Shown: in pieces, positions 1 to 31,949 of the stretch
Layout of the letters: every line of letters begins with the position of its first letter
Numbering within the stretch: the stretch's first letter is position 1
DNA from: Blasia pusilla
Lineage: Eukaryota
Assembly: GCA_050084515.1 (NCBI GenBank)
Contig: CM114271.1
Coordinates: 46,128,001-46,192,000 of the forward strand
Length of the DNA stretch: 64,000 nt
Reading direction: 5' to 3'
Made by a program: the position numbers and the translations under genes
Notes under the pieces: model-generated
Seen by the model: only the letters and a program-made list of their open reading frames with translations
The model's database searches: none
What the model was told of the DNA's origin: nothing

Positions 1-1155
1 CTCTTATGCTTGCAATAGGGCCAAATGGATAAGCCTTATCCATTATTGATAATATTAATATAAAAATATTATTATTATTTCCTGATATCTCCGTCACATT
101 TGCGATAATTTGTCACCGTTGCGCATTTCGGTCCCCGGGAACTAGCCTCTCTGGCCGTTCAGTTTCTTTTTCTATGAAGTCAAGGTCGAAGGAGCTCTAT
201 AGGATCCCCAGGTACGGTTTGTAGAGCTGTATCCTAGATCTTGAGCCCCATTGACATAACTATGGGTGACCTAACAATCATAGCATAAATATCTACGATG
301 GGATAAGCAAAGATGCCCGCTACACCCGCGATAGAGCGTGCCATGGCTTCGCTTGGTGTTGTGTTGCTGGAAAACGGGGGAGAGGTCTTCCACTTGGTGA
401 GTCCACGAGGTAGGGGTTTTAGTCCGCAACGCGTCTTGTTGGATTAAGGAACGCAACCCCTGATGTTGGGGAAAGCGGTTTCAGAGGATTGGGCTTGACG
501 AGAGCCAATATGGAGCGTTGTCCATCTTGGATACATACATCCTTGGATGGAGCGAGTACCACACAATATATCACATGAGAGGAGGTCATGGTGAGGATTC
601 GGCTAGGACATGCTACAGATGAGTCAGTGGTACAAGCCAAGGCGATAGTGACTCATGCAGAGTCCTACGACGTCTTTGTTGGTGGAGCAGTGTTTGTACC
701 CGATGGGGTTTTCATTGGATTACTGGGATGAGGCAGCGTCCTATAGACCAGTATGGCAGTCCGGTGATGGACGTCTTTGTTCATTACCAGTTTGATTCAC
801 ATGTGCTGTGATCGAGCAACGGCCAGGAGAGCTGACGACCTTAGCAGCATTTAGCAGCGCCATCACTTGGCCTAGTGATTCGATTGAGGGACATGTTCAT
901 GCAGAGGATACTCCCATTCTTGACATTTCTATGGAGAGGAGTGTCATGGTCGCTACATCATTCCATGGAGGAGAGGTGCCGCTTTGGGGTCCGATTGAGG
1001 AGCTTCAACGCTTAGCCACTGAGCATGTGCAGACCGCGTGGAGCGAGACGTTTGCACGAGAGCGTGACGGGTCAGAGGAACCCGAGGTAGCCGAGAGTGC
1101 TATGATGACGCCCTTGGATACCACACCCATTATGTGGTGCGTTCCAGAGGAGGAT

Positions 1156-2100
1156 ATTCGTGTGCTTGATCTCTTTGGCGGGATTAGCACTAGTGTAGCT
1201 ACTGTTTTGCAGGCTGGAGTACGCGTGCAACAATACATATATGTGGAGATTGATGATGTTGCAAGGCGCGCTGCACTTCACCATGTGGCATTTTTTTTTC
1301 CCGACTTTTTGTTTGCGTCCACTTTCCAAGGATACCAAAGTTCCCTACCAAGGGATATTGCATTGTTGGGGGCGTAGGACTTGGAGCGGGTAGAGACCGT
1401 AGACTTGGTCATTGCTCGTTGGCCGTGTCAGGGCCAATCGAGTGTTGGACAAGGTAGTAGGTTAGCTGACACTTGGTCTAGGTTATTTTGGGAAATGATG
1501 CGGATTTTACGACACTTGCAGGAGCATTGGTCCCGTTCTCCAACATATATTATGGAGAATGTGCCGATCTTGGGAGATTCAAGGTCACGGGTGGTGACGA
1601 GTGCACATCAGGTGCATGCATGGATCAACTCAGCAATATTTTTGGATGTGGCAAGTGTAGATTCTAGAGCACACCGCTCGCGTCTTTGGTGGACCAACTT
1701 GGTGCCACACGAGGTATTGCGGAGGGCATATCCGCGGGTGGAGCGCCCCTCCTAGTTGTTGGTGGATTCCATATTAGATCCCGTCCGTTGATCACAGGCA
1801 GTGAGGCACCATGATCGATCTTTGTTGACTGTGGTCAATAGGATTGGCATGCCACGGGCAAACTTCCCCATGTTGTGAGTTTTCCCGCTTCCTATACATT
1901 CAAGGAGGTTGCGTTTGGCTTGGTTTGGGATTACCAGGTAGAGCAATTGGTGGAGCCCAATGCCGATGAGCAAGAGCAAGTGATGGGATTCCCCACAGAA
2001 GTGACGATACTACGGAAGTATCGTCACTATCAGAGGCATCACGAACGTCATGTCTTGGGTCAGACAATGGACCTGAACTGCTTGATATGGATTTTTAGCT
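1156..2100 (+). pseudogene. DNMT3-like C5 cytosine methyltransferase domain in copy B (stops/frameshift)
   Basis: Motifs in unpermuted order: I VLDLFGGIS, II YVEIDD, III DI, IV WPCQGQS, VI ENV, VIII AHRSRLWWTN, IX EQEQVMGFP, X VLGQTMD. Confidence 0.9.
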
Positions 2101-2441
2101 TAGGAGTTGCTGAGCAGCGTCGTTTGACATTGCGACAGATTACAAGTGTTGCATTGGTGAGCCCCATGCCTACCGAGACGGTTGAGGCAGTGGCTGGGGG
2201 CGAGACTCGAGGAGATCGATACACCATGGGTGATTGGGAGAGACACCCTTGGACTTCTTGGGATGTTTTGCAAGTATGCTGGGAGATGATAGCCACAACA
2301 TTGAGCATCATTTCGGGTACTGCATATGGAGATCAGTTTTTGCAGTTGGCTATAGGGGAGCAGTCGAGTAGTACTGTCATGGACGGGGTTGCACCATAGC
2401 AACCACCAACACCTTGGCCAAAGAGTCCTACCATAGTCACG

Positions 2442-4839
2442 ATGGAGAAATGGGAGCCAGATATGGGCCCTAAGTTGACAGGAGGAGACCCGTGCCGGAT
2501 ACACCAGTTCCTAAGGAGTTATAGCAGTTGTATTACATTTAGTATGCATGATTTGGATACGCTTAAGGGTCTAGGGATCCGCATTGAGTTGTCAAGTGAC
2601 ACGCCGATCTTCCGACGACCCTACATGTACGGTGACATGGAGAGGGCTATGATTCAGAGTAGGAGCCACAACTTCGTTGGAGCAAGACTAATGGAGATGT
2701 CGCATGGAGAGTATGCATCTGCCACACATGCCCCAAAGAAGGATGTGCATGGCAACTTGACAAATAGGCGGATGTGTGGAGATTATCGACCTATCAATCG
2801 GCAGACAAAGTCTGATAGGTATGCCATGTCCACCCGTGAGGAGATCTTTGATGCTATTGGGCACGCAAAGGTCCCCAGTTCGTTAGATCTTAGAGTCGGA
2901 TACCATCAATTGCCCGTCAGATTGGAGGAAGACGAAATTTTTGGGCATCGATCCTCACGGGAAGGATTGCTTGTACTAGTGGCGGTTCTTACCATTTGGG
3001 TTAAAGAACGCCCCGGATGAGTTTCAGAGGGTCGTAGATAGGATCTTGGCACGTTTGGATTTTGCTAGGTATTATATTGGTGATATCGTAGTCTTTAGCG
3101 CCACGATTGAGGAGCATGAGCGACATCTAGAGGTGGTGTTGTGACGATTGCAGTAACATGGGCTGAAGCTATATCCAGGCAAGTGCAAGTTCTTCTATGA
3201 TAGATTGAGTACCTGGGTCATACCATATACCCATGTGGCCTTGATCTGTAGCACACAAAGGTAGAGGCTATTTCACTCATTCCACGCCCTACAAATGTGA
3301 GTCGGGTTTGTGCATTCATGGGATTGGCAAACTTCTATTGACAATATGTCAAGGGTTTCAATTTGATTTCAAAGCCGTTGACCTTGTTAACCAAGGTGGA
3401 TCAAGAGTGGCACTGGGGGGATGAGTAGGAGACAACATTTTAGCTGCTCAAGGGTAGATTGACCTCCGCGCCCATACTGAGGAGACCGATCAGGGGAGTT
3501 CCTTTCCAGTTGCATACACATTGGAGCATGTAGGGGCTTGGAGCCGTGCTTACCAACATGACAATGAGGGTAGAGAGTTCGTGGTGGCTTACGCTAGTCG
3601 CTCGAACAATGATGCAGAGGCGAAGTATAGCTCGTATGAGGGTGAGTGCTTGGCTGCAATGTGGGATGTCGCGCTTTTAGGTGTTATCTATTCGGAAATC
3701 CCTTAACCATCATTACTGATCATCAGCCAATTAAGTGGTTGATAGAGTTTGACAAGCTTACAGGGAAGCTTGCAAGGTGGGCTCTTTTGGTGCATGAGTA
3801 TGACTTCTAGGTGGTGCATAAACTTGGAACGCTCACTTCCAGGTGATGCATAGACCTGGAACGCTCAACAGTTTCGGTGGGAGGGGACACATGTGTTGCG
3901 AGTGTGGGAGAATGGTAGAGTACGTGTAGTTCCTCATCCTTCATAGAGAGCATGTTTGGTGCATCATGCCCACGAGGAGTTGGGTCATTTTGGAGTGAGG
4001 CGGACGTACAACTTGCTCCACATACAATATTGGTGGCGAGGCATGCAGACTGACGTTCAGCAGTTTGTTATCAGGTGTATGGTTTGTGATCGGGTCTGGG
4101 CATTGGTCAATGCTCCGACTCCATAGTTGCATCCACTTCCTATCATGGGTTTAGGTTATAGATGGATTTTGGATTTTGCAAGAACTTTGCCTTTGATGGA
4201 GCGCCATAGTCGTTATGTGTTGGTGATGGTCGAGCACTTCTCAAAGTGGATAGAGTTGGTTGCATTTCCTGAAAAAGCGAGTGAGGGAGTAGCGTATGCC
4301 TTCCTAGATTGAGTGTTCAGTCATTACGGTGCACGAGCTGAGGTGTTGATAGACCAGGGTACATAGTTTTGCAGGAAGTTTCAGGCCTTATCTGATCAAG
4401 CACTGATTGACCACTACACCACTTCGCGAGACCATCCTGAGGCGGATGGACTAGTAGAGAGGGTTGTGTAGACGATGAAGAGAGGATTACGCAAGTATGC
4501 CTTGCACAAAGGTCACCTAGGAGATTGGGACCTTCACTTGCCCTGGTTGGCAATGGGATACAGATTCAATATGCAGGCATTCTTATCGTCTTTCTCACCG
4601 TACTTGCTACTTTATGGCCGAGAGTCGGATTTACTTGCGGCCATTCGACGAGATGTTGGTGAGGTGTTGAACCTTGATAAACCTGATGTATGGATGCAAG
4701 CACGTTCTTAGAGGACTGAGTTATTTTGGAGAGTGATGCCCATGGCGTTTGAGAACTTAGCGATTGTGCAACATCGAGATACGTTGAGGTATGCGACTAT
4801 TCAAGGAGATGGTTATCGACATACTATCTGGAGGTTTCA
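2442..4839 (+). pseudogene. RT - RNase H - integrase of copy B (many stops/frameshifts)
   Basis: ORF fragments 2442-3020, 3521-3706, 4127-4312 and 4475-4711 match the RT/RH/INT fragments of copy A. Confidence 0.9.
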
Positions 4840-4967
4840 TATCGTGCGCATACACATCGCTACATAACATACATTGCTGTCATCGAACACACATAAAAAC
4901 ACACACGATCCCATGCTAACTCATGGCATCCATACACAGAGGCGAGAAGTGCCAAAATATCTCTAAT
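4840..4967 (-). repeat. Terminal repeat B2 of copy A
   Basis: Direct repeat of 5487-5597 (tcgtgcgc.tacacatcg...ccaaaatatctc.aat); absent from the element's other end. Confidence 0.88.
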
Positions 4968-5484
4968 TAAAGTAAGATCCAATCTCTCTCTACACCATCT
5001 CAGACCATAGCTCTCAAAGGTGTGCACTCTCTCTCATGTCAAACCAAACCCATTCTCCTCATGAGAGGCTTGGGTTACACTCACAAGGCAAGGGACCATA
5101 GCTCCGCCGCCTTATGCCAAGAGATTCAACAAAGAGAGAATGAGATCTCAAGCTCTCTCTCTCTCTTGGAGGTATACCCCCTTCCCTCTCCCAAGCCCTC
5201 TCAACGGTAACCTATGCTTGTAGGTCACCTCCTTGGCTCTTGACCTACTGTAGTGGGTCAAGGGACACTTCCCAAAGTGGAAAGTCAACTATCCATAACA
5301 TGGAAACTTACCCAAAATAGTAAGTTTCTCTATATGGCTACAAATGAGCTGAAACGAAGGGGAAACCTGCTCTCTCAGGTTTCCCGGGGCCTCAACAGGT
5401 CATCCTCGACCTCTTGGGCCTGTCCTCCACTACTCATGCAGTCGCTCTGCTAGATCCCATCGATCTATCCTAATAGTCGTAACA
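4968..5484 (-). repeat. Terminal repeat A2 of copy A
   Basis: Direct repeat of 14457-14979 (taaagtaagatccaatctc...tagtcgt(a/g)aca). Confidence 0.92.
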
Positions 5485-5486
5485 GT

Positions 5487-5597
5487 TGTCGTGCGCGTAC
5501 ACATCGTTGTCATCGAACACACACACAAACACACACGATCCCATGCTAATTCATGGCATCCATGCACATAGGTGAGAAATACCAAAATATCTCCAAT
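5487..5597 (-). repeat. Repeat B1 of copy A, preceded on the sense strand by a purine-rich tract
   Basis: Repeat of 4840-4967; sense strand reads TAGGGAGGCG then ATTGGAG; separated from A2 by 2 nt. Confidence 0.88.
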
Positions 5598-5771
5598 CGC
5601 CTCCCTAGCTGGTGGTTAGGTCCCTCTAACTCCAGATAGCCATCTATCTCTACCTACCACGACATACATCTCTAAGACGCTAAGAGCAGAAAGGTCGGGT
5701 GCTCATGTGGCCCCATCGTTAGTCGCCTTCCTATCATCCATATCATAGAAAAAGTCAGAATCTAAACCTAC

Positions 5772-5927
5772 CTAGTATCTCCTCTGTGTACATCTGGGAC
5801 ACATCCATCGTCCCCGAGGAACCCTAGTGAGAGGTGGCGTCAGACATGCCATATGCCAACCTCTCGAACATCCATCACAGACTAGCATTGTGGCCGCACC
5901 ACGAGCAGAACCTCACAACACACAACG
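5772..5927 (-). pseudogene. PHD finger at the integrase C-terminus, copy A
   Basis: Translation past the TGA at 5913: CVL*GSARGAATMLVCDGCSRGWHMACLTPPLTRVPRGRWMCPRC, a C4HC3 pattern. Copy B has Cys at the stop position (CMLC). Confidence 0.9.
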
Positions 5928-7060
5928 CAAGCCTGCAGGAACTACTACTGAGCTTGGATCTATTGTACCATCAATGTTAGGAATGTGACATGGCGCACAA
6001 TTGCGCACATGGTCCTTCCATACCATACCATCGCGTCCCTTCAACAAGAGAACAGCGGAGGGCAAAACGTCACGAACTCTCAGGATAGTGCGCCCTGCAC
6101 TCACATCCAACGTCGTCGGTGCTATCTGCTGCAAGTAGACATAATCTCCTTGATGAAACCTCCAGATAGTTGGTCGATAACCACCACCCCGAATAGTCGC
6201 ATACCTCAACGTATCCCGATGCTGCACAATCGCCAAGTTCTCGAACGCCATGGGCATCACTCTCCGAAATAACTTAGCCCTTTGAGAACATGCTCGAATC
6301 CATACATCTGGGTCATGAAGGTCCATCACCTCACCAGCATCTCGACGAATGGCCGTAGGCAAATCTGGCTCTCGGCCATAAAGTAGCAAGTACGGTGAAA
6401 AAGATGCTAAGGATGCCTGCCTGTCTGCTGAATCTGTATCCCATCGCCAACCACGGCAACTGGAGGTCCCAATCTCCTAGGTGACCTCTCTGCAAACCAT
6501 ACTTGCGTAAACCCCTCTTCACCGTCTGCACAACTCTCTCCGCTAATCCATCCACCTCGGGATGATCTCGCAAAGTCATGCGGGGGTCGATCATCGCTTG
6601 ATCACACAAGGCCAGGAACTCACCGTGAAACTCGATACCCTGGTCTGTCAACACCTCAGCTGGTGCGCCATAATGACTCAGCACTCTGTCAAGAAAGACA
6701 TAAGCTACTCCCTCACTCGCTTTGTCAAGAAATGCAACCAACTCAATCCACTTCCAGAAGTGCTCGACCATCACCAACACATAACGATTGTGATGCTCCG
6801 TCAAAGGCAAAGGTCCCGCAAAATCCAAACTCCATCTATAACCTAAGCCCATGATCGGTAATGGATGCAACTATGGAGTCGGAGCATTGAACGATGCTCG
6901 GACCTGATCACACTCCATGCACCTGGCAACAAAATGCTAAACGTCAGTCTGCATGCCTCACCACCAATACTCAATCTGGAGCAAGCTGTACGTCCGCTTC
7001 ACTCCAAAATGACCCAACTTCTCGTGGGCATGACGCACCAAATTTGCTCTCTGCGAAGGA
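5928..7060 (-). pseudogene. DDE integrase (HHCC zinc finger, catalytic core, C-terminal region), copy A
   Basis: H..LGHFGVKRTY..C..C, WSLDFAGPLP, VLTDQG.EF, DGLAERVVQTVK in ORFs 6331-6870 and 5913-6389. Confidence 0.92.
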
Positions 7061-7137
7061 TGAGGCACTACACGCACTCTACCATCTTCCCACACTCGCA
7101 ACACATGTGTGCCCTCCCACCAGAACCGTCTGGCTCG

Positions 7138-8846
7138 TTACAAGATCCGATCTCGCTCTCTAGACCCCACTGTGCTCGCGACGCTGCCAGTATGCAGGTA
7201 CTCCAAGACCACTCCATCGTCGTGAATGTCTCGGCCACGTGTCGTCTCCTCACCGACCTCTGGATCTAAGGACTCTCCAACAGACCTCGCCATCAAAGTC
7301 TCCGCAATCTGGCTCTCCATAGCCAACAAGCCCAAATAGGCTGACGCATGCCATCCTGGCACCAACTCCTCATCACTCTCACCATGCCAACGAGCTCCAA
7401 TCGCATCTCGCTGACTCGCGCATGGGTTATGGCTTAAACCATCTGCATCCCGGTTGAGCGTCCCAGGTCTATGCACCACCTGGAAGTCATACTCCTGCAA
7501 CAAAAGAGCCCACCTTGGAAGCTTCCCTGTAAGCTTGTCGGACTCCATCAACCACTTAAGTGGCTGATGATTAGTAATGATGGTAAAGGGATTTCCGAAT
7601 AGATAACATTTGAAATCTGCAACAGCCCACGCTACAGCCAAGCACTCACCCTCATACGAGATGTACCTCGCCTCTGCAGCGTTGTTCGAGCGGCTAGCTA
7701 AAGCCACCACAAACTCTCTACCCTCATCATCATGCTGGGTGAGCACCGCTCCAAGCCCCAACATGCTCCAATTTGTCTGCAACTGGAAAGGACGCCCCCT
7801 GATCGGTCTCCTCAAGATGGGCGAGGACATCAACCTATCCTTGAGCAACTGAAATGCTCATTCTTGCTCATCCCCCCAGTGCCACTCATGATCCACCTTG
7901 GTCAGCAAGATTAGGAGCTTCGCAATCGAACTGGATCCCTTGAAGTTTGCCAATCCCATGAATGTACGAACACGGCTCACATCTGTAGGGCGTGGAATGC
8001 ATGAAATAGCCTCTATCTTTGTCTATTGCACACCAAGGCCCCCAGGGTATATCGTATGATCCAAGTACTCAATCTGGTTGTAGAAGAACTTGCACTTTCT
8101 GGATGTAGCTTCATCCCATGTAACTGCAATCGTCGAAACACCTCCTCTAGATGTCGCTCATCCTCCTCAACCGTGGCGCTAAAGACTACAATGTCATCAA
8201 TATAACACCTAGCAAAATCCAGACCAGCCAAGATCCTATCCATCACCCTCTGAAACTCAGCCGAGGCGTTCTTTAATTCGAATGGTAAGAACCGCCACAG
8301 GTACAAACAATCCTTCCCGTGAAGATCGATGCCCCAAAATGCCGTCTTCTGCATGGCCTCCAATCTGATAGGTAGATGAAGGTATCCGGCTCGCAAATCC
8401 AATAAACTGAAGACCTTTGCATGTCCAATCGCATCAAATATCTCCTCAGGGGTGGGCATGGCATACCTATCGGCCTTTGTCTGCTGATTGACATGTCTGT
8501 AATCTCCACACATTTGCCTATCCGTCCAGTTGCCATGCACATCCTTCTTGGCGGGCATGACAATGGCAGATGGATACTCTCTATGCGACATCTCCACTAG
8601 TCCTGCTCCAACCAAGTCTTGGCTCCTACTCTGAATCAGAGCCTTCTCCATGTCACTGTACCTATAAGGTCGCCAAAAGATTGGCGTGTCACTCGACAAC
8701 TCAATGCGGATCCCTGGTCCCTTTAGCGTACCCAAATCCTCCATGCTAAATGCAAAGCAGCTCTTATATCTCCTCAGGAACTGATGTATCCGGCGCCACT
8801 CTCCTCCTATCAACTTAGGGCCCATATCTGGCTCCCAAGTCTCCAT
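7138..8846 (-). pseudogene. Reverse transcriptase and RNase H, copy A
   Basis: MCGDYR, LDLRAGY, LPFELKNA, YIDDIVVFS; RNase H ECLAVAWAV, LPRWALLLQEYDFQVVHRPG..N..ADGLS. Confidence 0.95.
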
Positions 8847-9179
8847 CGTGACTACAGTAGGACTCTCCGGCGCGGGTATCGGTGGTTGCTATGGTGCAAC
8901 CCCGTCTCGAACAAAAACACTCGGCCAACTGCTAACTCTGATCTCCTCCATGTGTAGTGGCCGGAACCACGCTCGATGCTTTGGCTATCATCTCTTGGCG
9001 TACCTGCAAAATATCCCAAGAAGTCCAAGGGTGTCTCTCCCGATCTCCCTAGGTGTGTAGATCTCCTTGGGTCTCGCCCCCAGCCACTGGCTCCACCGTC
9101 TCGGTAGGCATTGGGTCACCAACGCAACCGTTGTGATCTATCACGATCTCATATGGCGCAGCTCAACCACTCCCAAGTA

Positions 9180-9980
9180 GAGGATCCATGTCAAGCAGTT
9201 CATGTCCATTTCCTGACCCAAGATATGGCGTCGTGATGCCTCTGACATTGACGGTACTGTCGTCACTCCTGTGGGAAATCCCATCGCTTTCTCTCTCTTT
9301 TTAGCGTTGGGCTCCACCAACCTCTGAACCTCGTCATCCCAAACCAAGCCAGGACCGGCCTCCTTGTACAAATGGGAGGGGTGCTCCACTCTCTCATACG
9401 CCGTCTGTAACACCACATGGGGCACCAAGTTGATCCACCATAGACGCGGGCGATAGGATCTAGAACCTACACTCGCCGCATCCAAGAACACTATTGGGCC
9501 CATCCAGGCAAGCACCTGATGAGCACTCATCACCACCCGTGACCTGGAGTCTTCTAGGATCGGCACATTCTCCACAATGTAGGCTGGAGAACGAGACTGG
9601 TGCTCTTGCAACTGCCGTAAGACCCTCAACATCTCCCAAAAAAACCTGGACCAAGTGTTAGCCAATCCATTGTCTCGTCCAGCACTCGATTGGCCTTGAC
9701 AAGGCCAACCGGAAATGACCAAATCAATGGTCCCTACCCGCTCTAAGTCATGCGCCCCCAACAACGAAATATCCCTCGGTAGGGGACTCTAGTACCCCTG
9801 TACCGCGGACGCAGACAATAAATAGGGAAAACGTAGGCATAATTGCACCACATGTTGTAGTGAGACGCGCCTCGCAACATTATCACTCCCCACATACAGG
9901 TACTGTTGCACTCGCACTCCTACCTGCAAAACAGCAGCTAACATGGTGCTAATCCCTCCAAAGAGATCTAACACTCGAAT
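9180..9980 (-). pseudogene. DNMT3-like C5 cytosine methyltransferase domain, copy A
   Basis: VLDLFGGIS, GWPCQGQS, YIVENVP, YRPRLWWIN, EKAMGFPTGVT, ILGQEMD; ORFs 9789-10328 and 9141-9764 are in frame, split by one TAG. Confidence 0.92.
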
Positions 9981-10399
9981 ACCCTCCTCCGGGCTACACC
10001 AAAAAATAGGTGTGGTATCCAAAGGTGTTATTGTAGCACTCCCTGCTACCTCGGGTTCCTCAGACCCATCACGCTCTAGTGCAAATGCCTCGCTCCACGC
10101 TGTCTGCACGTGCTCATCTGCCAATCGTCGAAGCTCCTCACTTGAGCTCCTCAACGATATCTCTCCTCCACGGAATAATGCGGCTACCATAACACTCCTC
10201 TCCATAGAAATGTCAATAACGGGAGTATCCTGTGCATGGACATGTCCCTCAATCAAATCACTAGGCCAAGTGATGGCATTGCTAAATGCTGCTAAGGTCG
10301 CCATCTCTCCTCGCGGTCGCTCGATCACCGCACCTGTGAATTGAACGGGTTATGAGCTAAGGAGCCCATCATCTGACTGCCATCTTGGTCTGTAGGACG

Positions 10400-10742
10400 C
10401 TGACTCCTCCTAGTAATCCAAGGAAAACCCCATCGGGTATAACACCACTCCACCAACCAAGACGTCGTAGGACTCTACATCAGTCACTATCGCCTTGGTT
10501 CACACCACGGACTCATGTGTAGGATGTCTCGGGCGAATCCTCACCATGACCTCATGTTGGGTGATATACTGTGTGGTACTTGCTCCACCCAAGGATGTCT
10601 GTATCCGGAACGGACAACGCTCCACATCGGCTCTCGTCAAGCCCAATCCTCTAAATGACGCTTTCCCCAACATCAGGGGTTGCGCTTCTGAATCCAACAA
10701 GACACTTTGCGGACTAAAAGCTCTACCTCTGGGACTCACCAA
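10400..10742 (-). pseudogene. Retroviral-type aspartic protease, copy A
   Basis: VLLDSEAQPLM (degenerate DSGA) followed by YDVLVGG. Confidence 0.8.
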
Positions 10743-11399
10743 TTGGAAGATTTATCCTTGTTTATCCAGCAACACAACACCAGAAGAAGCCATGGCACGC
10801 TCTATCGCGGGTCTAGCGGGCATCTCCGCCATCCTAGCAGCCGCAGCCTGCTATGAATCTGACGTGGACGGCCTGAGCATCTGCTCCAAGGGCAGGTCCA
10901 TCACCTCCTCTACAATCACCTCTGAATGTGATGCAAGAACTCCAACTCCGCGCTCGCATAATGAAGCGGCCAGCCGAAAAGCCTCCATGGGCGTATCCCC
11001 CAACGTCATAACATCGGAAGCAGAAAATAAAGGAGTGCGATACACAACGGTGGCCGCCCCCAACAACGTGCTCGATACATGCCCCTCCTGAGCATCAACA
11101 ATAGGAGTCGTCGTACTCGCTTCTCTAATTGCCCTCCATGCTTGCACACCAACAACATCACCAACTCTCCAAGAACTTTGATGAGGACCCATCGATGGGG
11201 TCCTCATCGCTTCGAACAACGTGAAAGACTGAGGAAGCCTAGTATGTTTTCTGGATTCCTCTCGATGTGGATCCAACTCTGCGGCTGCTCCACACGTCAC
11301 AACAGTGGCGGCCTCCATCTAGGCAACCCTGCACATCCAACCAGGATCCTACATATCTGTGGCTGCTCCCTATGATGTCGATGCCACGGATCCGGCATC

Positions 11400-13010
11400 G
11401 GATAACCTCAATGCCATAGCGGCAATCTGCTCTTGTAGCTGTTGTATCTAAGCATCCATCCTAGCCTCACGTTCGGTGTTTTCCTCGACGCGTCTAGGTG
11501 GTGGTACTCCAACGGGACTACAAGGTGCACGATCTATAGGCCCACCCGGACCGGCTACTTGCGCTGGTGCCCTCTTTGGCCCTCGGTCCGGACGTAACTC
11601 AAGATGTAAATTGAAACATATGGCGCGTATATGACCATACCTCTGACAATAGTCACATTGATAACCTCTTGGTGCAGCACCATCTCCTCCTCCATTCTGA
11701 GGAACATGTCCATGAACTTGACGAGTGCAATCGCGCTGATAATGGGCTCCACCACATGACCAACAAGTAATAGTAGGCGGCTGCTGGTGAGCCGCATATG
11801 AAGGCGCAGGTCTCTGTGGCATGGCCTCCCGATATCCTCTCTGAGCTCGTGGTGCCACAGTCGCACTATCTCAGAGTCCACGTTGCTGCAGAGGTGGTGC
11901 AGCCAATCGTGACTCCTCTCGCCCAGAACCCATGGTGGCTACGCTCTCCTCCACCATGTTGCGCTCAATGTTCTCGACGGTCCTAAAAACATCTCTCAAC
12001 ATAGGGGAGGTGTTCATAAGAAGCACCCCCTCCCGCACCCGTGTCCGCAGGTCCGGCCCAATATCGCGTACCATGACTGGACAGCCTGAGCCTCCGTCAC
12101 CCCCTGAGTGACGTTGATCAACCGGCGCAAGTGAGTGTAAGCCTTGCGCAAACTCTCACCTGGGCGCCTCTGGAAGTCGTGGATGCTCCGCAACTTCTCC
12201 GTCCGTACCCCCTGGTAGCTGGCCCTCAACTCAGCAAAGAACTCAACCATGGGGTTGAACCTGGGACGAACCCGACTAGATGGTGCAACTACTCGAGTCC
12301 GAGAGACCCCTCCTAAAACATCACTAGTGGAAGAGGAAGTAGCCTCTCTTGACTCCTCCTCCTCATCTTGGAACGGCTCCGTCCATGACACATAGAATGG
12401 GTCATAGTAGAGTCGCCATGCCTCAATCTCCTTGGCATATATGTGGGAGAACTCATGGTAATCATCCATGGGCGCCCCCTCTAAATGCTGGAACATATCG
12501 TTCCATGTTGTAAAAGGGTTGAACTCTCTAGAGTTCTTGGCCTGTTGGGAGTCGCACCAACTCCTAAACTCTGCTATGAAATCGTGCAACTCAATCGTGC
12601 CTACTGCACCTGAAAACCTATGTAGTCCTCTATCCCGATCATCCATCTCGTACGCCCAACTGGTAGGACCACTCACAATGTATGGCGATGTGCTTACAAA
12701 ATCCTCTTCACCCTCCCCCTTGTTTGACAATGGCACAGAAGGAGGTCGAGGTGGTCCCTCACGTGGAGACCCACGGAACCTCGTGCCACTCCGCGTAAAA
12801 CCTCTAGAGCTACTCTCAGGTTCATCACCTCGCCTCTCAAAGTCTCGAACAGACGCCGTGATGACCCTCGTGCCCCTCTCACCCGATCACTCTCAACCTT
12901 GCGAGTAATCCCTCAATCACTCATCCCAAGCATGCGGCAGTCCATCTACATTCTCCCTCCCCGAGACGTATAACGTGTGGCAACACGCGGCGTGGTGCGG
13001 CTAATCGACC
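11400..13010 (-). pseudogene. gag with two CCHC zinc knuckles, copy A (start uncertain)
   Basis: CWSCGGAHYQRDC and CDYCQRYGHIRAIC; gag-like FQRRPGESLRKAYTHLRRL. Confidence 0.85.
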
Positions 13011-14456
13011 AAGCTATTATCTCATCGACAACCTACCCTTAACTCCGGACATCTCATGCAGGTCTATGTCCCCTAAACCACATACATGAATGATGCTCTC
13101 AGCATCCACACAAACCAATATCCCCAAATAAACTACCCAAATCCTAGAATCCCTCACACGTGTAGGGTAAAGGACCAGAATGGGTAACCTGAACACATGT
13201 TGATGCTGCTCCTCAGCAACTGCAAATCTTGACCCCAACTCGGTGGTGAAGAAAAATCCTCCAATCAGCAAGTCGTACTCCTTTCATACTGACGCTGCTC
13301 AACCTCCTCGATGTGCGGTGTAGGTCGAGTAGTCCGGTGCAGCACTGGAAACGCGGAACCGCTACAAACAGCATGGCACTTGGGAATTGGGTGCGGCAGT
13401 TGGCGGCATACCCTCCTCAATCAAAAATTCACACGCTCTGATCCTTAATGAAGGAAGGGTTCCGCGATCAAGATGGTGCGGTGTGGCCACTAGCGGCACA
13501 GCGCACCAATCGGCGGCGCGTTGCGGCTACGGGCGTCAAAGACGGTACTCAATCGACGTCGAGCGGTTACCAATCACAACATAGCAGCATGAAATCAAAA
13601 CTCAAACACCCTGACCGGAGGTTATCTGCCATCACTGGTTGATGATGACATTGCGATGACGGTGGCGGCCAAAACAAAGTACATGGTGGCGACGCAAGTT
13701 AGAGAATCAAGGAACGTCGTGGAAGACCCTCCACTCCGTAATGGCGGTAATGGCAACCAAAGGGTGGACAACGGACGGTGGACCGTTGACAGTGACGGTT
13801 GACCATTGATGGTGACGGTTGACCGATGACGGTGATGGTTGACTATCAACGGCAAACCGTTGATGGTGACTATGACGGCGGCGGCCACCGCCAGCGTGGC
13901 GGCTGTTTTAGGGTTTGAACAATTTAACCCTAAAAATTGCCTAGCAATGGCAATTTTACAAGATTGACCATAACTTTTTGCTCGCAACTTTAAATTACGC
14001 ATTGTTTATTGCACAACGTGCACAACTTCATGTTCTACGATAGCGTCAAAAAAAATTTAGAATCACAAATTTCAATAAAAATTGACGGGGATTGTCGTAA
14101 AGCCCAATGTCTCTTTCTCCTACACAAAATTTGGCAGCGCTTCGGCGCTGATTTCTTCCAACGAAAATGTAAGACGTGTAAAAAATCAAATCAGCAAGCT
14201 AGATGGTGCTCCCGAGAGCGCTGGCATGGGGCAACCTGCCCCCATAATCAATCCCTATCAAAAATTGGGCAGCGCTTCCGCACGCCACTCTTCCACACAA
14301 AAAATCGGCAAATGCAAAGAACAATCAAAGCAGCCCTTGCTGCGGTGAGCACTCCCATGAGCCGCTGAATGGGGAACACGGTCCCCAACCTGCCAAAACA
14401 GCGAGTGACCAGCGAGCTCCCCCATGAAGCTCTCTCACTCTCTCATTCTCTCTTTG

Positions 14457-14979
14457 TAAAGTAAGATCCAATCTCTCTCTACACCATCTCACACCATAGC
14501 TCTCAAAGGTGTGCACTCTCTCTCATGTCAAACCAAACCCACTCTAATAATGAGAGGCTTGGATTACACTCACAAGGCAAGGGACCACAGCTCTGCCGCC
14601 TTATGCCAAGAGGTTCAACAAAGAGAGAATGAGCTCTCAAGCTCTCAAGCTCTCTCTCTTGGAGGTATACCCCCTTCCCTCTCCCAAGCCCTCTAAAAGG
14701 TAACCTATGCTTGTAGGTCACCTCCTTGGCTCTTGACCTGCTGTAGCGGGTCAAAGGCTACTTCCCAAAGTGGAAAGTCAACTATCCCCAACATGGAAAC
14801 TTACCCAAAATTAATTATATATATATATATAGCTCCAAATGAGCCGAAACGAAGGGGAAACCTATTCTCTCAGGTTTCCCGCGGCCTCAACAAGTCATCC
14901 TTGACCTCTTGGGTCTGTCCTCCACTACTCGTGCAGTCGCTCTGCTAGATCCCACTGATCTATCCTTATAGTCGTGACA
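14457..14979 (-). repeat. 5' terminal repeat A1 of copy A
   Basis: Matches 4968-5484. Not followed by B sequence or by a TGG-type tRNA primer site (next bases on - are AAGAGAGAATGAGAG). Confidence 0.92.
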
Positions 14980-14983
14980 TTCA

Positions 14984-16217
14984 TCAGGGAGACTATGTGT
15001 ACTCGCAGCACACAACATCCACGACATTGGATGTGATTGCAGGGCTTACCATCTTGAGAGTGCATGAGATTTTGCCATCTAGTGTTCTCTTATTAGAGGG
15101 ACGCGATGATATGGTTTGGAAGGACCATGTGCGTAATCGTGCGTCATGTCACCTTCCTAACATTGACGATACAGTTGATCCGAGCCTAGCAGTAGTTCAT
15201 GCAGGCTTGCGATGTATGTTGTGTGGTTGCGCCCGTGGTGCAGCTACTATGCTAGTCTATGATGGTGTTCGAGAGGATGGCATATGGCATGTTTGACGCC
15301 ATCCCTCAGTAAGATTCCCGAGGGACGATGGATGTGTCACAGATGTACATAGGGTAGGTAGTTCTAGATTCCGACTTGTGTCTGTGATATGGATGAAAAG
15401 AAGGCGACTAACGATGGGGCCATATGAGCACCCAACCTTCTTGCTCTTAGCGTCCGAGAGATGTATATCATGGTAGGTAGGGATAAATGGCTATCTAGAG
15501 TTAGAGGGACCTAACCACCAACTAGGGGGGGGGGGGATTGGAGATATTTTGGTACTTCTTGTCTCGTTGTTTGGATGCCATGAGTTAGCATGGGATGTAG
15601 CGATGTGTATGCGCACAAGAGCTGTCACGAATTTTTAGGATAGATCGAAGAGATCTGGTAGAGCGCCTTCGCGACTAGAGGCGGACAGGCTCACGAGATT
15701 GAGGATGACCTGTTGAGGTCATGGAAAACCTGAGAGAGCAGGTTTCCCCTTCGTTTTGGCTCATTTGGAACTATATAGACAAACTTACTATTTTGGTAAG
15801 TTTTCATGTTTGGTAGAGTTGACTTTCTATATTTGGAAGTGACCCCTGACCCGCTTCAGTAGGTCCAGAGTCAAAGAGGTGATCTACGAGCATAGCTTGG
15901 GAGAGGGAATGTGATATACCTCAAAGAGAGAGAACTTCAGAACTCATCCTCTCTTTGTTGAACCTCTTGGCATGAGACGGCGGAGCTATGATCTTGCGTG
16001 GAGCCAAGCTTATCATTAAGAGAGTGGGTTTGGTTTGACATTAAGAGAGACATGTGAAACTGCATCTTAGATTATGGTGTTGAGAGAGATTGGATCTATT
16101 TGATTTATTGGAGATATTTTGATATTTTTTATCTCGTTATTTGGATGCCATAAATTAACATGGGATCGTGTGTATTTATGTGTATGTTTGTCGACAACGA
16201 TGTGTATACATACGACA
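14984..16217 (+). mobile_element. Copy B right part: integrase C-terminus, PHD remnant, PPT (15524-15536), B1 (15537-15620), A2 (15623-16106), B2 (16107-16217)
   Basis: ORF 14997-15296 matches copy A INT/PHD; G-run precedes ATTGGAGATATTTT, which recurs at 16107; ends TACGACA. Confidence 0.9.
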
Positions 16218-17509
16218 AACCTCTTTGAGAAGACATTGTTTCAGTTCATCAAACCTCTTAGTCAACTACTCTTGATAGATGACCAAGAGGCTATGGTCTT
16301 GCTAGTTACAGATTGGTAGGATTCAAAAGTGGACCACAACTTGAGCTTGTAGAGACCTAGTGAGAGGTCTGCATGAAATGTGTGTTGATAGCAGATGGGG
16401 TTCTCAAGGGGAGAGTAAGTAGACTGATGGATCTCATTTTCCTAGACTCATCTGCCAACATTCTCAATCAGATCTCAACCTTCTAGGCTTGGATTCTCAT
16501 GAAGAGGGTGATGAGATGGACAAGATCAACAAGCAAGCTTCAGATCTCGGAGCCCAAGCCTCTTCCACAAACATCAAGAACCAGCCAGAATCAGAAGCAG
16601 CTCCACGACATAAGATCCACAAAAAGTCAAGTTTTTTAGATGAAGCCACCGTGAAGAAAGATTGACTATTTAAGTTATTGGAGTTCAGATTCAGAGACTG
16701 AATGATAGAGACCATCCATTTACGTGAATCTACCATCAGAATCCCGGATGAACTCTCTGGGAACCACTATCCTCAATACAACCCGTCCTAAAGTTTCTAA
16801 ATCAGTGGTATCTCTAAGAGTCGACATTTGGTTCTGGCTAGCCTCAGTGCTGCAACCAGTATCGCCTGGAATTTTGATTTTTTTAGCAACTGATGTGATG
16901 GGGATGGAAGTTGACAAGACACCAGATAGAAAATACTACAAAAAGAGTGAAGAGTCCGTATGGCGTTAAATTTGGCTCACATCTCCATTCAATCCTACAG
17001 CTTATCCCCTTGCATTTTGCAGCCTCTGCAGTTTGAATCAAGTTGGCATCCAGAGATGACCAAAATATGTGGCAGCAGGAGAAAGAGAACCACATAATAA
17101 GGCCTAGTAGTGGCCCTAAATCTTGTAATTTCCAGTATCATGGTCCTCTTAGTTTCCTTACAGAGTAAATCACTTCATTCTTTCATTCCCATGGCAGGAA
17201 AAAGTTCGTTATGTGTGATTAGAATCAATTCAGCCATTGGAATTGTTAGATGACTGAGACAGAGCTTAAGAAATGACGTTCAAAAGCAGAATCAGTTCAG
17301 TGAACATGGCATTTCAATGGATTTTGAAAAACTGTGGAAAGAATCAACAGAGATTGCCTTGAATGTTTCTAGAGACCAGGGATGCTAAAATTTGTTCAGA
17401 CGTTATGATATACACTGAACATCAATTCCAAGATAATGCCACTAAATAGGCTTTGTACGAGAGATGTAAATATTTACAACAAAGAATAAATTTGGCAATT
17501 ACTCTACAG

Positions 17510-20500
17510 TCACTCTAACTGTCCACTTCCACCGAAGATAATAGGCTTCAAAAAATAGTACTGCTCAAATCTTTGTCGTGCATACTCCAAATAGTTGAAG
17601 TCTATATCCGATGTTAGGGCCTGTGAAATACGATGCACAATCAAATTTTTTTGCATGGTAAGCACTTGTCACTTTGCTACTGCTTAATTAAAGAATTGAG
17701 TACCTTAAGATCAAAGAAGCTAGTTAACAATAAGTGCGGCATCATAACACTTCATCTACTTGGGAAACCTGAGATGTGGCAATCCAAAATCATCCACTAT
17801 CTGAAAAGTTTGGATAGACTAGAAACACATTGCCTGCTTGAGAACATTGTCCTAGTATTGATAAACAGATTCTCCTCACAATTATATGGCTTCTTTATTT
17901 GAAAGAGATGATCTTCAAGCAACTTCTCGCATTGGCTTCGACCAGCAAATAAGCAGTTTGAATAGGAAATTAATGGGAGGTTGGTACTGCAACAACTCAC
18001 AGAAATGATTCCCCATAGACCCCACAGTAGATGACTGGCAAGTGTGTATGCATCGGTAGCCTTCATCAAATCTTCGATATCAGTCTCATGAACTGTCCCA
18101 TCTACATTGGCATCACAATCATCCACCGAATATTGGTTAGTTTCAACACACAAACTGTACTTTGAACTGTCGACATGATGCAATAAGATATCAGGACTCA
18201 ATCCTGACCTAACCTGCAGAGATCAATCCCTAATCTGTGAGTCTACACTGTTGTGCCTAGCTGTAGTGCATGGAGCTAAGGCTGAATGTGGAACAAGCAT
18301 CATTGCAGTGAAGCTTCCCCCAATGACATATGAAATATGACAAACACAGTTCTCACCTAGAGCTTGTAGGTAAACTGTAATGAATATTCGACGCTCTTCA
18401 TAATCTGTGCCATGAAGGATCACATGCTAAACTCATTAAAATTGATAGGCAATGATTCACTGGTGGTATGAACATGGAAGCATAAGTCAAAGCCCTCCAT
18501 AATAACAGCATTAGGAAGCAGACATCAGTTGAGCAAGCATCACACACTGACTCCATTTGAGCGTATTCCTGTACCAAAGTTGGCCAAAAGTCTTCATAAG
18601 CATGCCATCATTCTGCAGTCAATGCCACTCTACAAGTATCATCTAACGCTACCCTACCATGGCAGCAGATGGCAGGAATCGGCAGAAAGAAATTGCAAAA
18701 AGAGTTCTTTCTTTGGAGCTGATATCTGCCATGGAGAGTCCAAACATTCAGATGAAGGGAGACTTAGAAGTTTGCACTTCTAGTCCCATTCAATCTATAA
18801 TATGCATCATTAGATCCACTTATTGTTCTTCTAGTTGTGGACCACACGGTAGCTGTTCATGAAGACAATCCAGTCATGAGTTTCAGTCACACAAATGTGC
18901 ATTCATCATTCGTTTCACCAAGAGAAGGTTACTCACGAGGAAATTTGCCATAATCCAGGATGTGAGGTGTATCTGTGTGGTAGTCGGCAGCCATTTCACA
19001 AAAGTGGTTAGCGATGTCAAATGCAACTGGGTTGAAACTTGCGTACTCATAGTCCTGTTACACGACAAACACAACATGATCAGGCTAAAAGCTTATTACT
19101 TCTTGTGAAGAGTCGTCATTTCACACAATAGCCCCACAATTGAAGAGACGTACTAAGAGGTGATAATGAATGAGAAGTGCAAGAAGCATAATTGCTGCTA
19201 CAACCAACCAACGAAGAGCCCTAGTGCCAAACAACCAGCTTGCATCCTGCATGGCCAGAACATTGAGTGAAGGAGAGAACCTACAATGATAGTGATGGTG
19301 TTATCATTCTCGTCGATCATGACATTCCCGTACTGCAGATCATTGTGACAAAATCCAATCATTTCGTCTGGCGTTCGTATTCTTTTCTCCAGTTCAGCTA
19401 TCTCTTCACTTAAATGATGCAGCCGAAATTCCACTATATGGCTCGTGCTGGCCCTCTTCAAAGTTTCATCTAACCACAAACTGCTGAGGGGAACACGGAT
19501 TACTCAGATGACCAAATCATTCCAGTCGAATGAGACGGGTGGCGTTCTCCTGTGGCTCGGAACGGGTACTTTCTCAAGATGATTTCTACACGTCCAGCTG
19601 AGATTGTAATATTTTCAAAGAACACACGAAACGAATCGACCAACGCAAGTGCAGTCAAAGAGCATCAACCTGAGGCGTTGCCATAGAAAGGGCTGTGCTG
19701 CTCCGGGCATGTCGAGTCCATGGAATTCCCTCAGCTTCACGGCAATCTGGTTCGACACTTCGGGGACCCGCAAGTCTGCAGCCGACAAAGTCTGCTCCGC
19801 CCACAACCCAACAAAAACAGATCAGAGAGCTGCGACAACGTCGAGCAATGCTGTCGACAATCTGAGTCAGTGAACCTGATCCCAGTCTCCAATGAGCAAC
19901 GGTGCAATGGAAAACTCTGGGTGCTTCGTATCCAAGCTCTCTCCCGAACTCCCCTGGCTCATCATGGCCAGCCCCATGGACAATTGCCTCAAACGACACC
20001 GCGCAAGGATAAAGAACGGCAGAGCCTAACTAGTTCATTGGAGAAAGTGTACGATAACTAGTTCATATTGGAGAAAGTGTATGGGCGGGTGTGGACTAGA
20101 GTTGGAAGTGTTGTAGAACGGGGATGTTCACCGTTTGTAGACAAGAGTTGGGCAGTGTCGATTACACATCCGCTACCAAATGATAGCCCATTTCACTTCT
20201 GACCGTCAGAGATAAACTGCAATGAGCTGTACCCTGGCATGGAGAAACTCTTCGACGCGGCCGTTGTGAAATCTAGCGAGCAATTGAGGACCTTGTCCCT
20301 GCTGAGACATCCTCTCGAACGTCAGAATTTCGCTCTCTCTGCTGAAGAAGAGCTCTGAGCTCTCTCCATACACACGCACCAACACCTTCCTGGGCTTCCC
20401 ACGGTGCTTCTTCGACGCCCAGAGACACTCGAAGACTTGATTGGTCATGGCACCCCTCAGTGGCTTCAGAGACAGGTTGCGGTAGCTGGAAATGTCGGTC

Positions 20501-20798
20501 CAGTTTTTGGCTAACCTGAAACACAGCACATCCATCAGCAGAAGGAAGCACTGGAAAACTGAAAAAGAAGCATGAATTCGCCTTCCATCTGACTGCCTGC
20601 ACCGAAATTCTTCTCCCCGGATACGACTCTGCAGTCGCCTTCGGACTCGCAACCAGGCCCTGCACCCTAAATTGCAGCAACGCTCTACATCTATCAAAAC
20701 GAAACCCCACAAGCCATCGAGGGAGAAAGAAATGTACCGGTGCAGAACGGCATACGCTTCCACTGGAATCTCCCAATCATCATCCAAGCTTCCAGCAC
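17510..20798 (-). CDS. Choline/ethanolamine kinase; exons approx 20798-20738, 20515-20233, 19791-19670, 19480-19285, 19054-18937, 18404-18357, 18101-18001, 17620-17510; start codon not located
   Basis: [37 protein letters not shown] (Brenner motif), [41 protein letters not shown] junctions with consistent phases. Confidence 0.9.
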
Positions 20799-21256
20799 CT
20801 GCTCCAGCCACAATCACCGTCGAGTCAGTCAACCACGCGAATTACCATTCCTCACTGCGAATTCGATTCACACAAGTCTGCGAACCCCATTGGCCTCCTC
20901 CAGACGGCGCGGAGCCAACAATTCCACTCACTCGGAGCTTCGTGGATGTCATACCTAGTGGAACAGCGCGCAACGCCAGGTCGTCCATATACGAGCACAA
21001 CTCCATAATTCACCCTCTTCCCTCCCCTCGAAACCAATAACAGATTAACCACCACCTGCACTCTTCTGCTCCGTTCCAGACTCGTCCTTCTCCTGCTCCT
21101 GCTCCTTTTCCTTTTCCTTGTCCTGCTTCTGTTGCTGCTACTGCCGACTTAGGCCAGCGAGACGGAGACGCTGTGGGCTCTCTCTCTCTCTCTCCAGAGA
21201 ATCCTGTCTAGCGAATTATCTCTGCATAAATCTCTCTCGGATCCTCCTCTCTAGCG

Positions 21257-30900: not shown

Positions 30901-31949
30901 CAATGCACTTGTGGAGTGGTACTAGAGATGGAGAAAATGGTAAGTCTGGAATTCTTCAATCATTGTAAAAGAGTTTGTTTTGATACTAAGCACTGTGAGT
31001 GTCACTAGCTGTAAGATTTTGAATTTAGGCATCTTTTCTGTGTGGTTTTGGAGATCAATTAGAGACATTGTGGAGTTTGAAAGTTTGTTCCTATTGGTTT
31101 TGTAATGTTGTTGTGACATGATGTGCCTTTTTTTTTTCGTTATGTGTTATGATGTAAAATTAGCCACTGTCCTACCAACGTCTTGTTCCCTCAGAGATGT
31201 TGTCTATGAAGTCAAAACTAGAGGCCATGTCCATCTTATCTGGCTTGTCAATTCTTTTGATGTTCAGTGGTAAGTCTCATTTCAAGGTAGGTGGTCACAA
31301 TTTGAATCACAAGTTCCTGTGTAGCATGGTACTTAAAGTGAACTCTTTTATGCAGGTAACTCACAGGAGCACTGTTTGCCCTCATCGTCAAATCACCTGT
31401 CGATTCTGTGGAGATATGGTCCAAGCAGGCTCAGAAGCTGACAATGTAAGAGACCGCATGCGAGGTCTGACCCAACATGAGAGCTCCTGTGGTTCACGCA
31501 CTGCTCCTTGTGACACTTGTAGTCGTGCAATCATGCTTAAAGAAATGGATCTTCACATGGCTGCTGCGCATGGTGGTGCTTCTCAATCAGCAGAGGTTCC
31601 CACGTCTAATATTCCATCGTCAGGGTTACCAGTGCAGTTTAGGAATGATGGTGGAACTGTTCCTCCTTCCACACCAACTGTGCAGATTAGAAGTATTGAA
31701 TGCCCCATATGTAGTAAACAATTCCCAGGGAATGCAACTTGGCAACTTAATCAGCATATAGATTCAGAGCACTTGAGTTCCTCTGAAGAGACAGCGCCTA
31801 CACACTTAGATAATCCTGTGGTAGAAGCACCAGGGTATGATTTTCCTCCATCTACTCCAAGGAGAACTCTATCAGTAGCATGCCCAATTTGTGGGATGGC
31901 AGTTCACAGTGAGCGTGATTTGAGCTCTCACATTGATATGGTTCATTAA
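27966..31949 (+). CDS. UFD1-family protein with C-terminal TRAF-type/C2H2 zinc fingers; exons 27966-28148, 29036-29258, 29774-30939, 31356-31949
   Basis: MDFELRQAKEKWERE start, GDKIRLPASAF, THSGVLEFTAREG, HKAVLETKLRQHATLSVGD (UFD1), Cys/His fingers; splice phases consistent. Confidence 0.9.

Follow-up and report, generated by a model that had tools for sequence, protein, structure and literature searches.

Two nested, decayed copies of a gypsy-type retrotransposon with a DNMT3-like cytosine methyltransferase domain in Blasia pusilla

We analyzed a 64,000-nucleotide stretch of the Blasia pusilla genome (assembly GCA_050084515.1, contig CM114271.1, positions 46,128,001 to 46,192,000 of the forward strand), here called the window, with all positions counted from its first letter. 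The window very probably holds two decayed, nested copies of a Ty3/gypsy-type retrotransposon of the streptophyte Gypsy-DNMT3 family—a judgement that covers both the identity and the anatomy of the element. It encodes, in order, Gag (with a CCHC zinc knuckle), protease (PR) and a DNMT3-like methyltransferase (MTase), followed after an in-frame TAG by reverse transcriptase (RT), RNase H (RH), integrase (IN) and a PHD finger, with no introns; on the minus strand, colinear retroelement frames span 12,650 to 5,790. Copy A is a whole element of 10,139 bp on the minus strand (4841-14979), located within the integrase of copy B and colinear with Gag-PR-DNMT of Marchantia and with RT-RH-IN-PHD of a relative, L042. 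Copy B breaks off at 4840 and continues from 14980, each edge of the break bearing TTCAT (4836-4840 and 14980-14984), so that copy A represents a complete nested insertion with a 5-bp target-site duplication (TSD). The uninterrupted homologous site, found in the integrase of copy A itself, contains TTCAT once only. The stretch 14980-16206, which might be taken for a third fragment, is the remainder of copy B.

Copy A can be followed on the minus strand from its 5' terminal repeat, A1 (14457-14979), which is 91.4% identical over 523 nt to a second unit, A2, near the other end. A gap of about 1.8 kb separates A1 from the start of Gag; part of it is a leader stretch (12887-14456) without a recognised domain, where DNA read depth resembles that of the rest of the element interior, and gaps of more than 1 kb at this place also occur in the relatives L011 and L047. 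Gag homology begins near 12649-12631, and Gag, with its CCHC zinc knuckle and a frame change, covers 11448-12649 according to tblastn with the Marchantia protein P0161 and the Sphagnum protein P0166. The aspartic protease region follows at 10400-10760, with the open reading frame (ORF) 10500-10751 matching P0161 and showing DSE where Marchantia has DSG; Gag and the protease-like stretch are together colinear with the Marchantia gene Mp_4g09160. The linker and the DNMT3-like MTase (a 402-codon frame, 10349-9144) come next, and then the in-frame stop TAG CAA CCA (8883-8891), reverse transcriptase (8013-8888; PF00078, E 1.6e-15), RNase H (7138-7857; PF17917, E 7.9e-32) and the rve core of integrase, which contains a frame change (5913-6870; PF00665, E 1.8e-8). 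At the integrase C-terminus, behind one TGA, lies the PHD finger (5790-5900; PF00628, E 3.3e-10 on P0364), which Pfam also detected behind the integrase in ORF2 of L042, in P0175 and in P0240. This finger occupies the post-integrase place held by a chromodomain in chromoviruses, so that one element holds both a DNMT3-type enzyme and a finger that reads histones.

The 3' end of copy A consists of three repeat units: B1 (5486-5597, 88.7% identical to 4871-4967), A2 (4968-5484, the partner of A1) and B2 (4841-4967, the partner of B1). The repeats are therefore split, with A1 at the 5' end, B1-A2-B2 at the 3' end and the B unit of 112-127 nt flanking A2. Copy B lies on the plus strand in two pieces. 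Its left part (311-4840, heavily decayed) contains the end of the protease, the DNMT region (796-2120), the stop TAG CAA CCA (2397-2405), reverse transcriptase, RNase H and the start of integrase, and is 82-85% identical to copy A; its right part (14980-16206) contains the integrase C-terminus, a PHD remnant, B1 (from 15537), A2 and B2 (16107-16206), in the same B1-A2-B2 layout, and is 78.5% identical to the reverse complement of 4886-5998. The same kind of arrangement was found in L047, a divergent metagenome element (A1 3672-3963, B1 12343-12527, A2 12520-12811, B2 12812-12996); no terminal repeats were found on the L042 contig. This layout is that of split direct repeats of the DIRS/PAT type. 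The element shows the PR-RT-RH-IN order and the short TSD expected of Ty3/gypsy, but not two identical long terminal repeats with TG...CA ends: it begins with TG, its end is not CA, and its repeats are split. At 26171-26480 the window also resembles the integrase of copy A weakly (71%), probably as a remnant of another gypsy element.

The C5-MTase domain sits between protease and reverse transcriptase in both copies—a placement that the sequence-only reading of this DNA had already proposed, and which Pfam and the colinearity with Mp_4g09160 confirmed. In copy A (minus strand), the motifs read I (LDLFGGIS, 9971-9948), IV (GWPCQG, 9710-9693), VI (ENVP, 9572-9561), VIII (RPRLWWIN, 9452-9429), MGFP (9284-9273) and X (LGQEMDMN, 9221-9198). 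Copy B shows the same six in the same order on the plus strand (1165-1188, 1417-1434, 1555-1566, 1675-1698, 1983-1994 and 2055-2078), so that the order I, IV, VI, VIII, X is unpermuted in both. The ORF 9141-9788 matches PF00145 with 40.9 bits, against a curated gathering cut-off of 22 (E 2.2e-10), and the stop-read-through translations of both copies match it as well (E 6e-10 and 1e-9). The motif search and this match bear out the presence of the C5-MTase motifs, including PCQ and ENV, in both copies, as first claimed, and the HMMER-type comparison with PF00145 that had been suggested as a check gave a match above the cut-off rather than no hit.

Several lines of comparison place the domain next to the DNMT3 enzymes. 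When the window protein was compared with Protein Data Bank (PDB) sequences by phmmer, DNMT3A, 3C and 3B ranked at the top (E 1.4e-8 to 5e-7), with HaeIII, HhaI and DRM2 at E 0.01-0.03. A family profile built from six members gave the same ranking against the PDB: DNMT3A 3e-14, DNMT3B 2e-12, tobacco NtDRM 4.5e-9, DRM2 5e-6 and HaeIII 2e-5. Moreover, the alignment with DNMT3A is colinear (residues 5-171), whereas the DRM chains were matched by motifs I-IV at their C-terminal end. For the fold, the intact relative P0004 was modeled with AlphaFold in place of the broken window copy, using a 50-sequence alignment (pLDDT 92.4); the top matches of this model among PDB folds were all DNMT3A/B/C (E 9e-19, TM 0.84 on target, 20-23% identity). 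Across 50 diverse family members the catalytic Cys and the ENV Glu are invariant, the RxR arginines are nearly so, and the SAM-binding motif I is kept. Pfam returned no PWWP or ADD match, the upstream region being protease and linker, and the window domain has neither the permuted order of DRM (VI-X before I-V) nor UBA domains. As judged from the predicted protein and the modeled fold, the domain is thus a DNMT3-like, non-permuted C5 methyltransferase—as the sequence-only reading had held—with the label resting on the PDB ranking, the fold and the 2018 study of de Mendoza et al., the text of which assigns the domains of Klebsormidium elements to a divergent Dnmt3-related clade (PMC5890265).

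The evolutionary record of the domain could be read from the two copies themselves. We estimated dN/dS between copy A and copy B by the Nei-Gojobori method, segment by segment and with wrong-frame controls. DNMT motifs I-VIII (193 codons) gave 0.235, against 0.92 and 1.33 in the wrong frames; the values were 0.372 for reverse transcriptase (279 codons), 0.283 for integrase (172 codons) and 0.453 for RNase H (129 codons), and wrong-frame controls across these four segments ranged from 0.64 to 1.33. All these dN/dS values are upper bounds, because part of the divergence postdates the death of the copies. The DNMT domain was hence under past purifying selection, at least as strongly as the core enzymes, and the neutral evolution named beforehand as an outcome that would speak against a functional domain is not what the copies record. 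A comparable constraint appears in the text of the 2018 paper for intact copies of the Klebsormidium element KnitGypsy-Dnmt3, with dN/dS <0.2 on the domain (PMC5890265).

Both window copies are dead relics with no present function. Compared with Mp_4g09160 (Gag-PR-DNMT), copy A has two frame changes and 14 stops, and compared with the RT-RH-IN-PHD frame of L042 it has two frame changes and 7 stops. Its DNMT contains one in-frame TAG (9789-9791) and is missing about 50 codons of the target-recognition region, as 141 nt of copy B (1760-1900) are absent at 9367; the DNMT of copy B contains several stops and a frame change. A weak sign that sister copies retain the segment lost from copy A comes from read joints at 1898/9368, the shorter side of which measures only 26-27 letters.

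Relatives of the element were sought among proteins and metagenome contigs. Word-index protein searches returned 37 and 7 relatives, the named ones 41-65% identical, among them Mp_4g09160, Mp_6g11220 and Mp_1g20900 of Marchantia polymorpha and proteins of Calypogeia fissa and several Sphagnum species; Pfam places the DNMT of the Marchantia, Calypogeia and Sphagnum relatives after Gag/CCHC and before reverse transcriptase. The window domain itself is 49-58% identical to its best database matches. A profile search of 1.84 billion representatives yielded 7363 matches at E<=1e-3 and 369 cluster representatives at E<=1e-30; the best 150 matches are all element-type, mostly polyproteins of 1000-3400 residues. 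In addition, a scan of JGI metagenome contigs produced 598 pattern matches; 289 of them were relatives, and 80 relatives were retained. At phylum level the protein atlas lists Streptophyta and Chlorophyta for the relatives, and of 30 representatives looked up, six carried an organism name. These 'metagenome' contigs are plant nuclear DNA, for the L047 contig also contains an open frame (15262-16647) that ends in a DYW motif, typical of plant PPR editing factors.

A FastTree phylogeny of 132 non-identical domains placed the window in a clade of 34 tips (support 0.968). In this clade the DNMT precedes reverse transcriptase in all four tips informative for the position of RT; among the other 98 tips, all 76 informative ones have the DNMT between RNase H and integrase. 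An IQ-TREE fast search with 39 sequences—leaving out the near-duplicates P0237, L041, P0163 and L011 and using 9 of the 17 sampled sequences from the other side of the split—supported the split with an SH-aLRT of 98.9 and the bryophyte clade containing the window with one of 100. The named members of the 34-tip clade include Klebsormidium nitens GAQ93235.1 and proteins of three Closterium strains, with the order CCHC-PR-DNMT(-RT) according to Pfam; the sole named member on the other side is a 'pol' protein of the chlorophyte Scenedesmus sp. PABB004 (KAF8056149.1). In public data, most relatives (76 of the 80 informative tips) thus belong to this RNase H-DNMT-integrase class, largely on unnamed metagenome contigs; the class looks much larger than the literature consulted describes. 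Its domain sequence assigns the window element to the streptophyte Gypsy-DNMT3 family of de Mendoza 2018; it is not a new capture. The separate land-plant lineage suggested by the sequence-only reading was accordingly not borne out, as the element shares both clade and Gag-PR-DNMT order with the Klebsormidium elements, and the phylogeny it had called for was obtained in part: the domain groups with the Klebsormidium element, in trees that contain no named host DNMT3 or DRM.

Well beyond the window, a stop recurs at the junction of DNMT and reverse transcriptase. In both window copies the DNMT frame ends in TAG CAA CCA (8891-8883 and 2397-2405), and reverse transcriptase follows in the same phase. 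The metagenome element L042 has a 1369-codon frame (protease, DNMT), the stop TAG CAG TTA and a 1047-codon frame (RT, RNase H, integrase, PHD), again in the same phase; it is otherwise intact, with this TAG as the sole stop in 2417 codons, and L041 is alike. Among 36 moss-type loci aligned over the junction—which share ancestry and were counted as one lineage—35 have a stop (27 TAG, 8 TAA; the remaining one reads TAC), followed by CAA CCC. In three lineages with DNMT domains about 46-55% identical, the stop thus lies at a homologous in-frame place between the conserved HPWSxWD and WEPxxGPKL, the RT-RH-IN part lacks a start of its own, and the frames on either side are always in one phase. The UAG-CAR-YYA context is known as the leaky read-through context of tobacco mosaic virus (TMV), and read-through likewise joins gag and pol in murine leukaemia virus (MLV); for LTR elements of plants, the literature searched offered nothing of use on read-through. 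As in those viruses, an in-frame UAG would here divide an abundant upstream product from a rarer polymerase fusion, and the contexts of the window copies and of L042 fit CAR-YYA; unlike in those viruses, a DNA methyltransferase and a protease would form part of the upstream product, and C is the last base of the moss-type context. The conserved TAG-CAR-YYN stop places the enzyme in the Gag-PR reading frame and, lying after the DNMT, suggests that it would be made with Gag rather than with the polymerase. The earlier description of the domain as part of the polyprotein frame apart from decay lesions therefore stands as regards the frame; the TAG at 8889-8891 and 2397-2399, in turn, is a conserved feature of the family and not a lesion.

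Public reads give some view of the element in the host genome. RNA reads on copy A are few: with 6-12% of each run read, their depth was 0.06-0.84 in the DNMT region and 3-7 in the repeats. In nearly all of them the first mate is on the plus strand, which means sense transcripts if the usual library type is assumed. Only 11 of 161, 2 of 155 and 4 of 186 RNA reads are at least 99% alike, and most are 95-99% alike, so that they come mostly from sister copies. Similarly, DNA read depth over the interior of copy A is about 5-12 times that of copy B, and higher still over the A repeat, with most reads 95-99% alike, which indicates that sister copies of the copy-A subfamily are numerous in the host. 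The observed/expected ratio of CpG is 0.69-0.72 in the copies; elsewhere in the window it is 0.63, and two host genes show 0.38-0.45, which is not telling.

Some observations weigh against the reading of the window as relics of a once functional, methyltransferase-bearing gypsy family. Most relatives are decayed, and in only 8 of the 80 metagenome loci does an open frame cover 90% or more of the DNMT match; the C-terminal part of the DNMT gives a dN/dS of 0.557 with wrong frames at 0.55-0.64 and is thus uninformative; the term DNMT3-like derives from PDB ranking, fold and literature, the trees being built without named host DNMT3 or DRM; and those trees have no outgroup, so that we claim the split and not its direction. 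The sense orientation of the RNA, as said, depends on the assumed library type. One could also suppose an independent capture of a host DNMT3 by a gypsy element of land plants, which would make this a lineage separate from the Klebsormidium elements. The text of the 2018 paper describes the acquisition as specific to the K. nitens lineage (PMC5890265), and the modest identity of the window domain to its best database matches would be in keeping with this; yet GAQ93235.1 and the Closterium proteins fall into one clade with the bryophyte and window domains (at the support given above), the CCHC-PR-DNMT order is common to all of them, and the split-direct-repeat layout that a figure legend gives for KnitGypsy-Dnmt3 (PMC5890265) is present here too, which makes a separate capture very unlikely. 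The thought that a host DNMT3 pseudogene came to lie beside retrotransposon fragments by chance or through misassembly is scarcely credible: only the decayed state of the region speaks for it, against two window copies with identical order and phase, the same arrangement in Marchantia, Calypogeia, Sphagnum, Closterium, Klebsormidium and metagenome contigs, and a whole unit that is bounded by a target-site duplication and whose junctions are spanned by public DNA reads.

Membership in the Gypsy-DNMT3 family leaves two further points to be weighed, namely the nature of the stop and the activity of the enzyme. The TAG between DNMT and reverse transcriptase might be an inherited decay lesion or a true gene end rather than a programmed read-through site. 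The stop is not universal, for in P0181, P0339 and the L047 type a single open frame continues from DNMT into RT, and the moss-type context CAA CCC fits CAR-YYA incompletely. Moreover, copies within one genome share ancestry, and TAGCARYYA, with two matches in the whole window and 3.3 expected by chance, is not above chance in number, so that only its position is informative. That position is exactly the two junctions; together with the recurrence of the stop in three diverged lineages, its solitary occurrence in the otherwise intact L042, the constant phase and the missing start of RT-RH-IN, this renders a lesion or gene end quite unlikely. As for the enzyme, the fold might in practice serve as an RNA m5C methyltransferase or as a structural or binding module. 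In its favor—and also counting against an active enzyme in our own family—the KnitGypsy-Dnmt3 domain gave no methylation in yeast, a result the paper's text calls inconclusive and, to judge from that text, the only published test of a Gypsy-DNMT3 domain; against it, the same assay failed for human DNMT3B as well (PMC5890265). Conservation of the catalytic Cys, the ENV Glu and motif I throughout the 50 diverse members likewise speaks against it, dN/dS on motifs I-VIII is as low as on integrase, and the fold, with its short target-recognition region, matches DNA-bound DNMT3A/B; such a non-DNA role accordingly seems unlikely. On balance, and going by the predicted protein and its model, we lean toward a DNA C5-methylation activity of the domain in intact members.

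Going beyond the anatomy, the conserved motifs, the past selection and the integrase-made insertion that the sequence shows, a mechanism consistent with these features may be outlined for intact members of the family. Most ribosomes would stop at the TAG and release Gag-PR-DNMT, and a minority would read through it and add RT-RH-IN-PHD. The methyltransferase would in this way be about as plentiful as Gag and, being fused to it, would be carried into the particle, where our best guess is that it would methylate cytosines of newly made cDNA or of a fresh insertion. Self-methylation of cDNA had already been proposed in the text of the 2018 paper (PMC5890265); that the element's own cDNA is the main substrate is an idea we hold tentatively and with some doubt. 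A new copy could benefit by resembling methylated host DNA, or by having its chromatin state set jointly with a PHD-guided integrase; through the PHD finger, histone state probably directs where the integrase inserts the element. The most far-reaching version of this scheme—one ancient streptophyte lineage in Klebsormidium, Zygnematophyceae, liverworts and mosses, with a leaky UAG and a particle-borne DNMT3 methylating its own cDNA or host DNA, still active in bryophytes including Marchantia—strikes us as improbable when taken as a whole. If it were true, transposons would encode some of the capacity for de novo methylation in early land plants.

Why a transposon carries an enzyme that normally silences transposons has been a question since 2018. 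The present findings show that the family is not confined to Klebsormidium and reaches liverworts and mosses, including annotated Marchantia polymorpha genes (Mp_4g09160 and others), which moves this question into organisms for which genetics and methylomes are available. The conserved stop, for its part, offers a concrete and testable hint on where and when the enzyme acts. Main texts of the literature searched mention neither DNMT-bearing gypsy elements in land plants nor the Marchantia gene names, with the reservation that supplements may list copies, and later papers refer to the hosts, in the text available, just as 'streptophytes' (PMC12344493; bioRxiv 10.64898/2026.05.21.726589). We consider new here the reach into liverworts and mosses, the conserved stop, the TSD combined with split repeats, the PHD finger after integrase and the split into two architectural classes, with bryophyte copies possibly listed in supplements.

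The remainder of the window contains several host genes. An RNA-dependent RNA polymerase gene with long exons lies at 41969-46636 on the minus strand (RRM and PF05183); its product is 58% identical to that of Riccia sorocarpa and at most 46% identical to those of other named plants among the matches listed. This gene, together with the origin of the nearest DNMT relatives in Marchantia, Calypogeia and Sphagnum, marks the host as a land plant and probably a liverwort. A gene at 29635-31949 on the plus strand encodes UFD1 N-terminal subdomains fused to XAF1/TRAFD1-type zinc fingers, and an exon of a choline/ethanolamine kinase gene is found at 20206-20841 on the minus strand (PF01633, E 2e-20). 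Finally, 55758-58864 (minus strand) and 61366-63999 contain open frames of 672, 329, 277 and 186 amino acids with no Pfam match, which may represent a mobile element or lineage-specific genes.

Among known systems, KnitGypsy-Dnmt3 is the closest to the window element. According to the text and the legend of Fig. 4c of the 2018 paper, it combines a DIRS-like repeat layout with a gypsy domain set (PMC5890265), and it shares with our element a non-permuted DNMT3-type domain in an intron-less gypsy polyprotein, the same clade, the split repeats and purifying selection. The two differ in that the present host is a land plant and the window copies are dead; the TAG-CAR-YYN stop, the PHD finger after integrase and the 5-bp TSD are added here beyond the text on KnitGypsy-Dnmt3, and the figures or supplements of that paper may show them. 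The KAF8056149.1-type elements (RT-RNase H-DNMT-integrase-PHD) have a related DNMT (E ~1e-63 to the family profile), gypsy RT, RH and IN and a PHD finger after integrase, but carry the DNMT between RNase H and integrase and fall on the opposite side of the tree split. SymbioDIRS-Dnmt3 of Symbiodinium is likewise a retrotransposon-borne DNMT3-type enzyme, and the 2018 text presents it as the one class for which de novo CG methylation was shown in yeast; it differs by its DIRS backbone, tyrosine recombinase, dinoflagellate host and reported independent acquisition (PMC5890265). Cellular DNMT3A/3B/3C and plant DNMT3 provide the best sequence and fold match and share the motif order, the short target-recognition region and the stretch into motif X, whereas the window domain has no PWWP or ADD partner, is about 20-22% identical to the animal enzymes over the catalytic domain and forms part of a retroelement polyprotein. 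DRM2 and NtDRM, in turn, are distant DNMT3 relatives in the same hosts, set apart by their permuted order and by their lower profile scores (5e-6 and 4.5e-9, against 3e-14 for DNMT3A).

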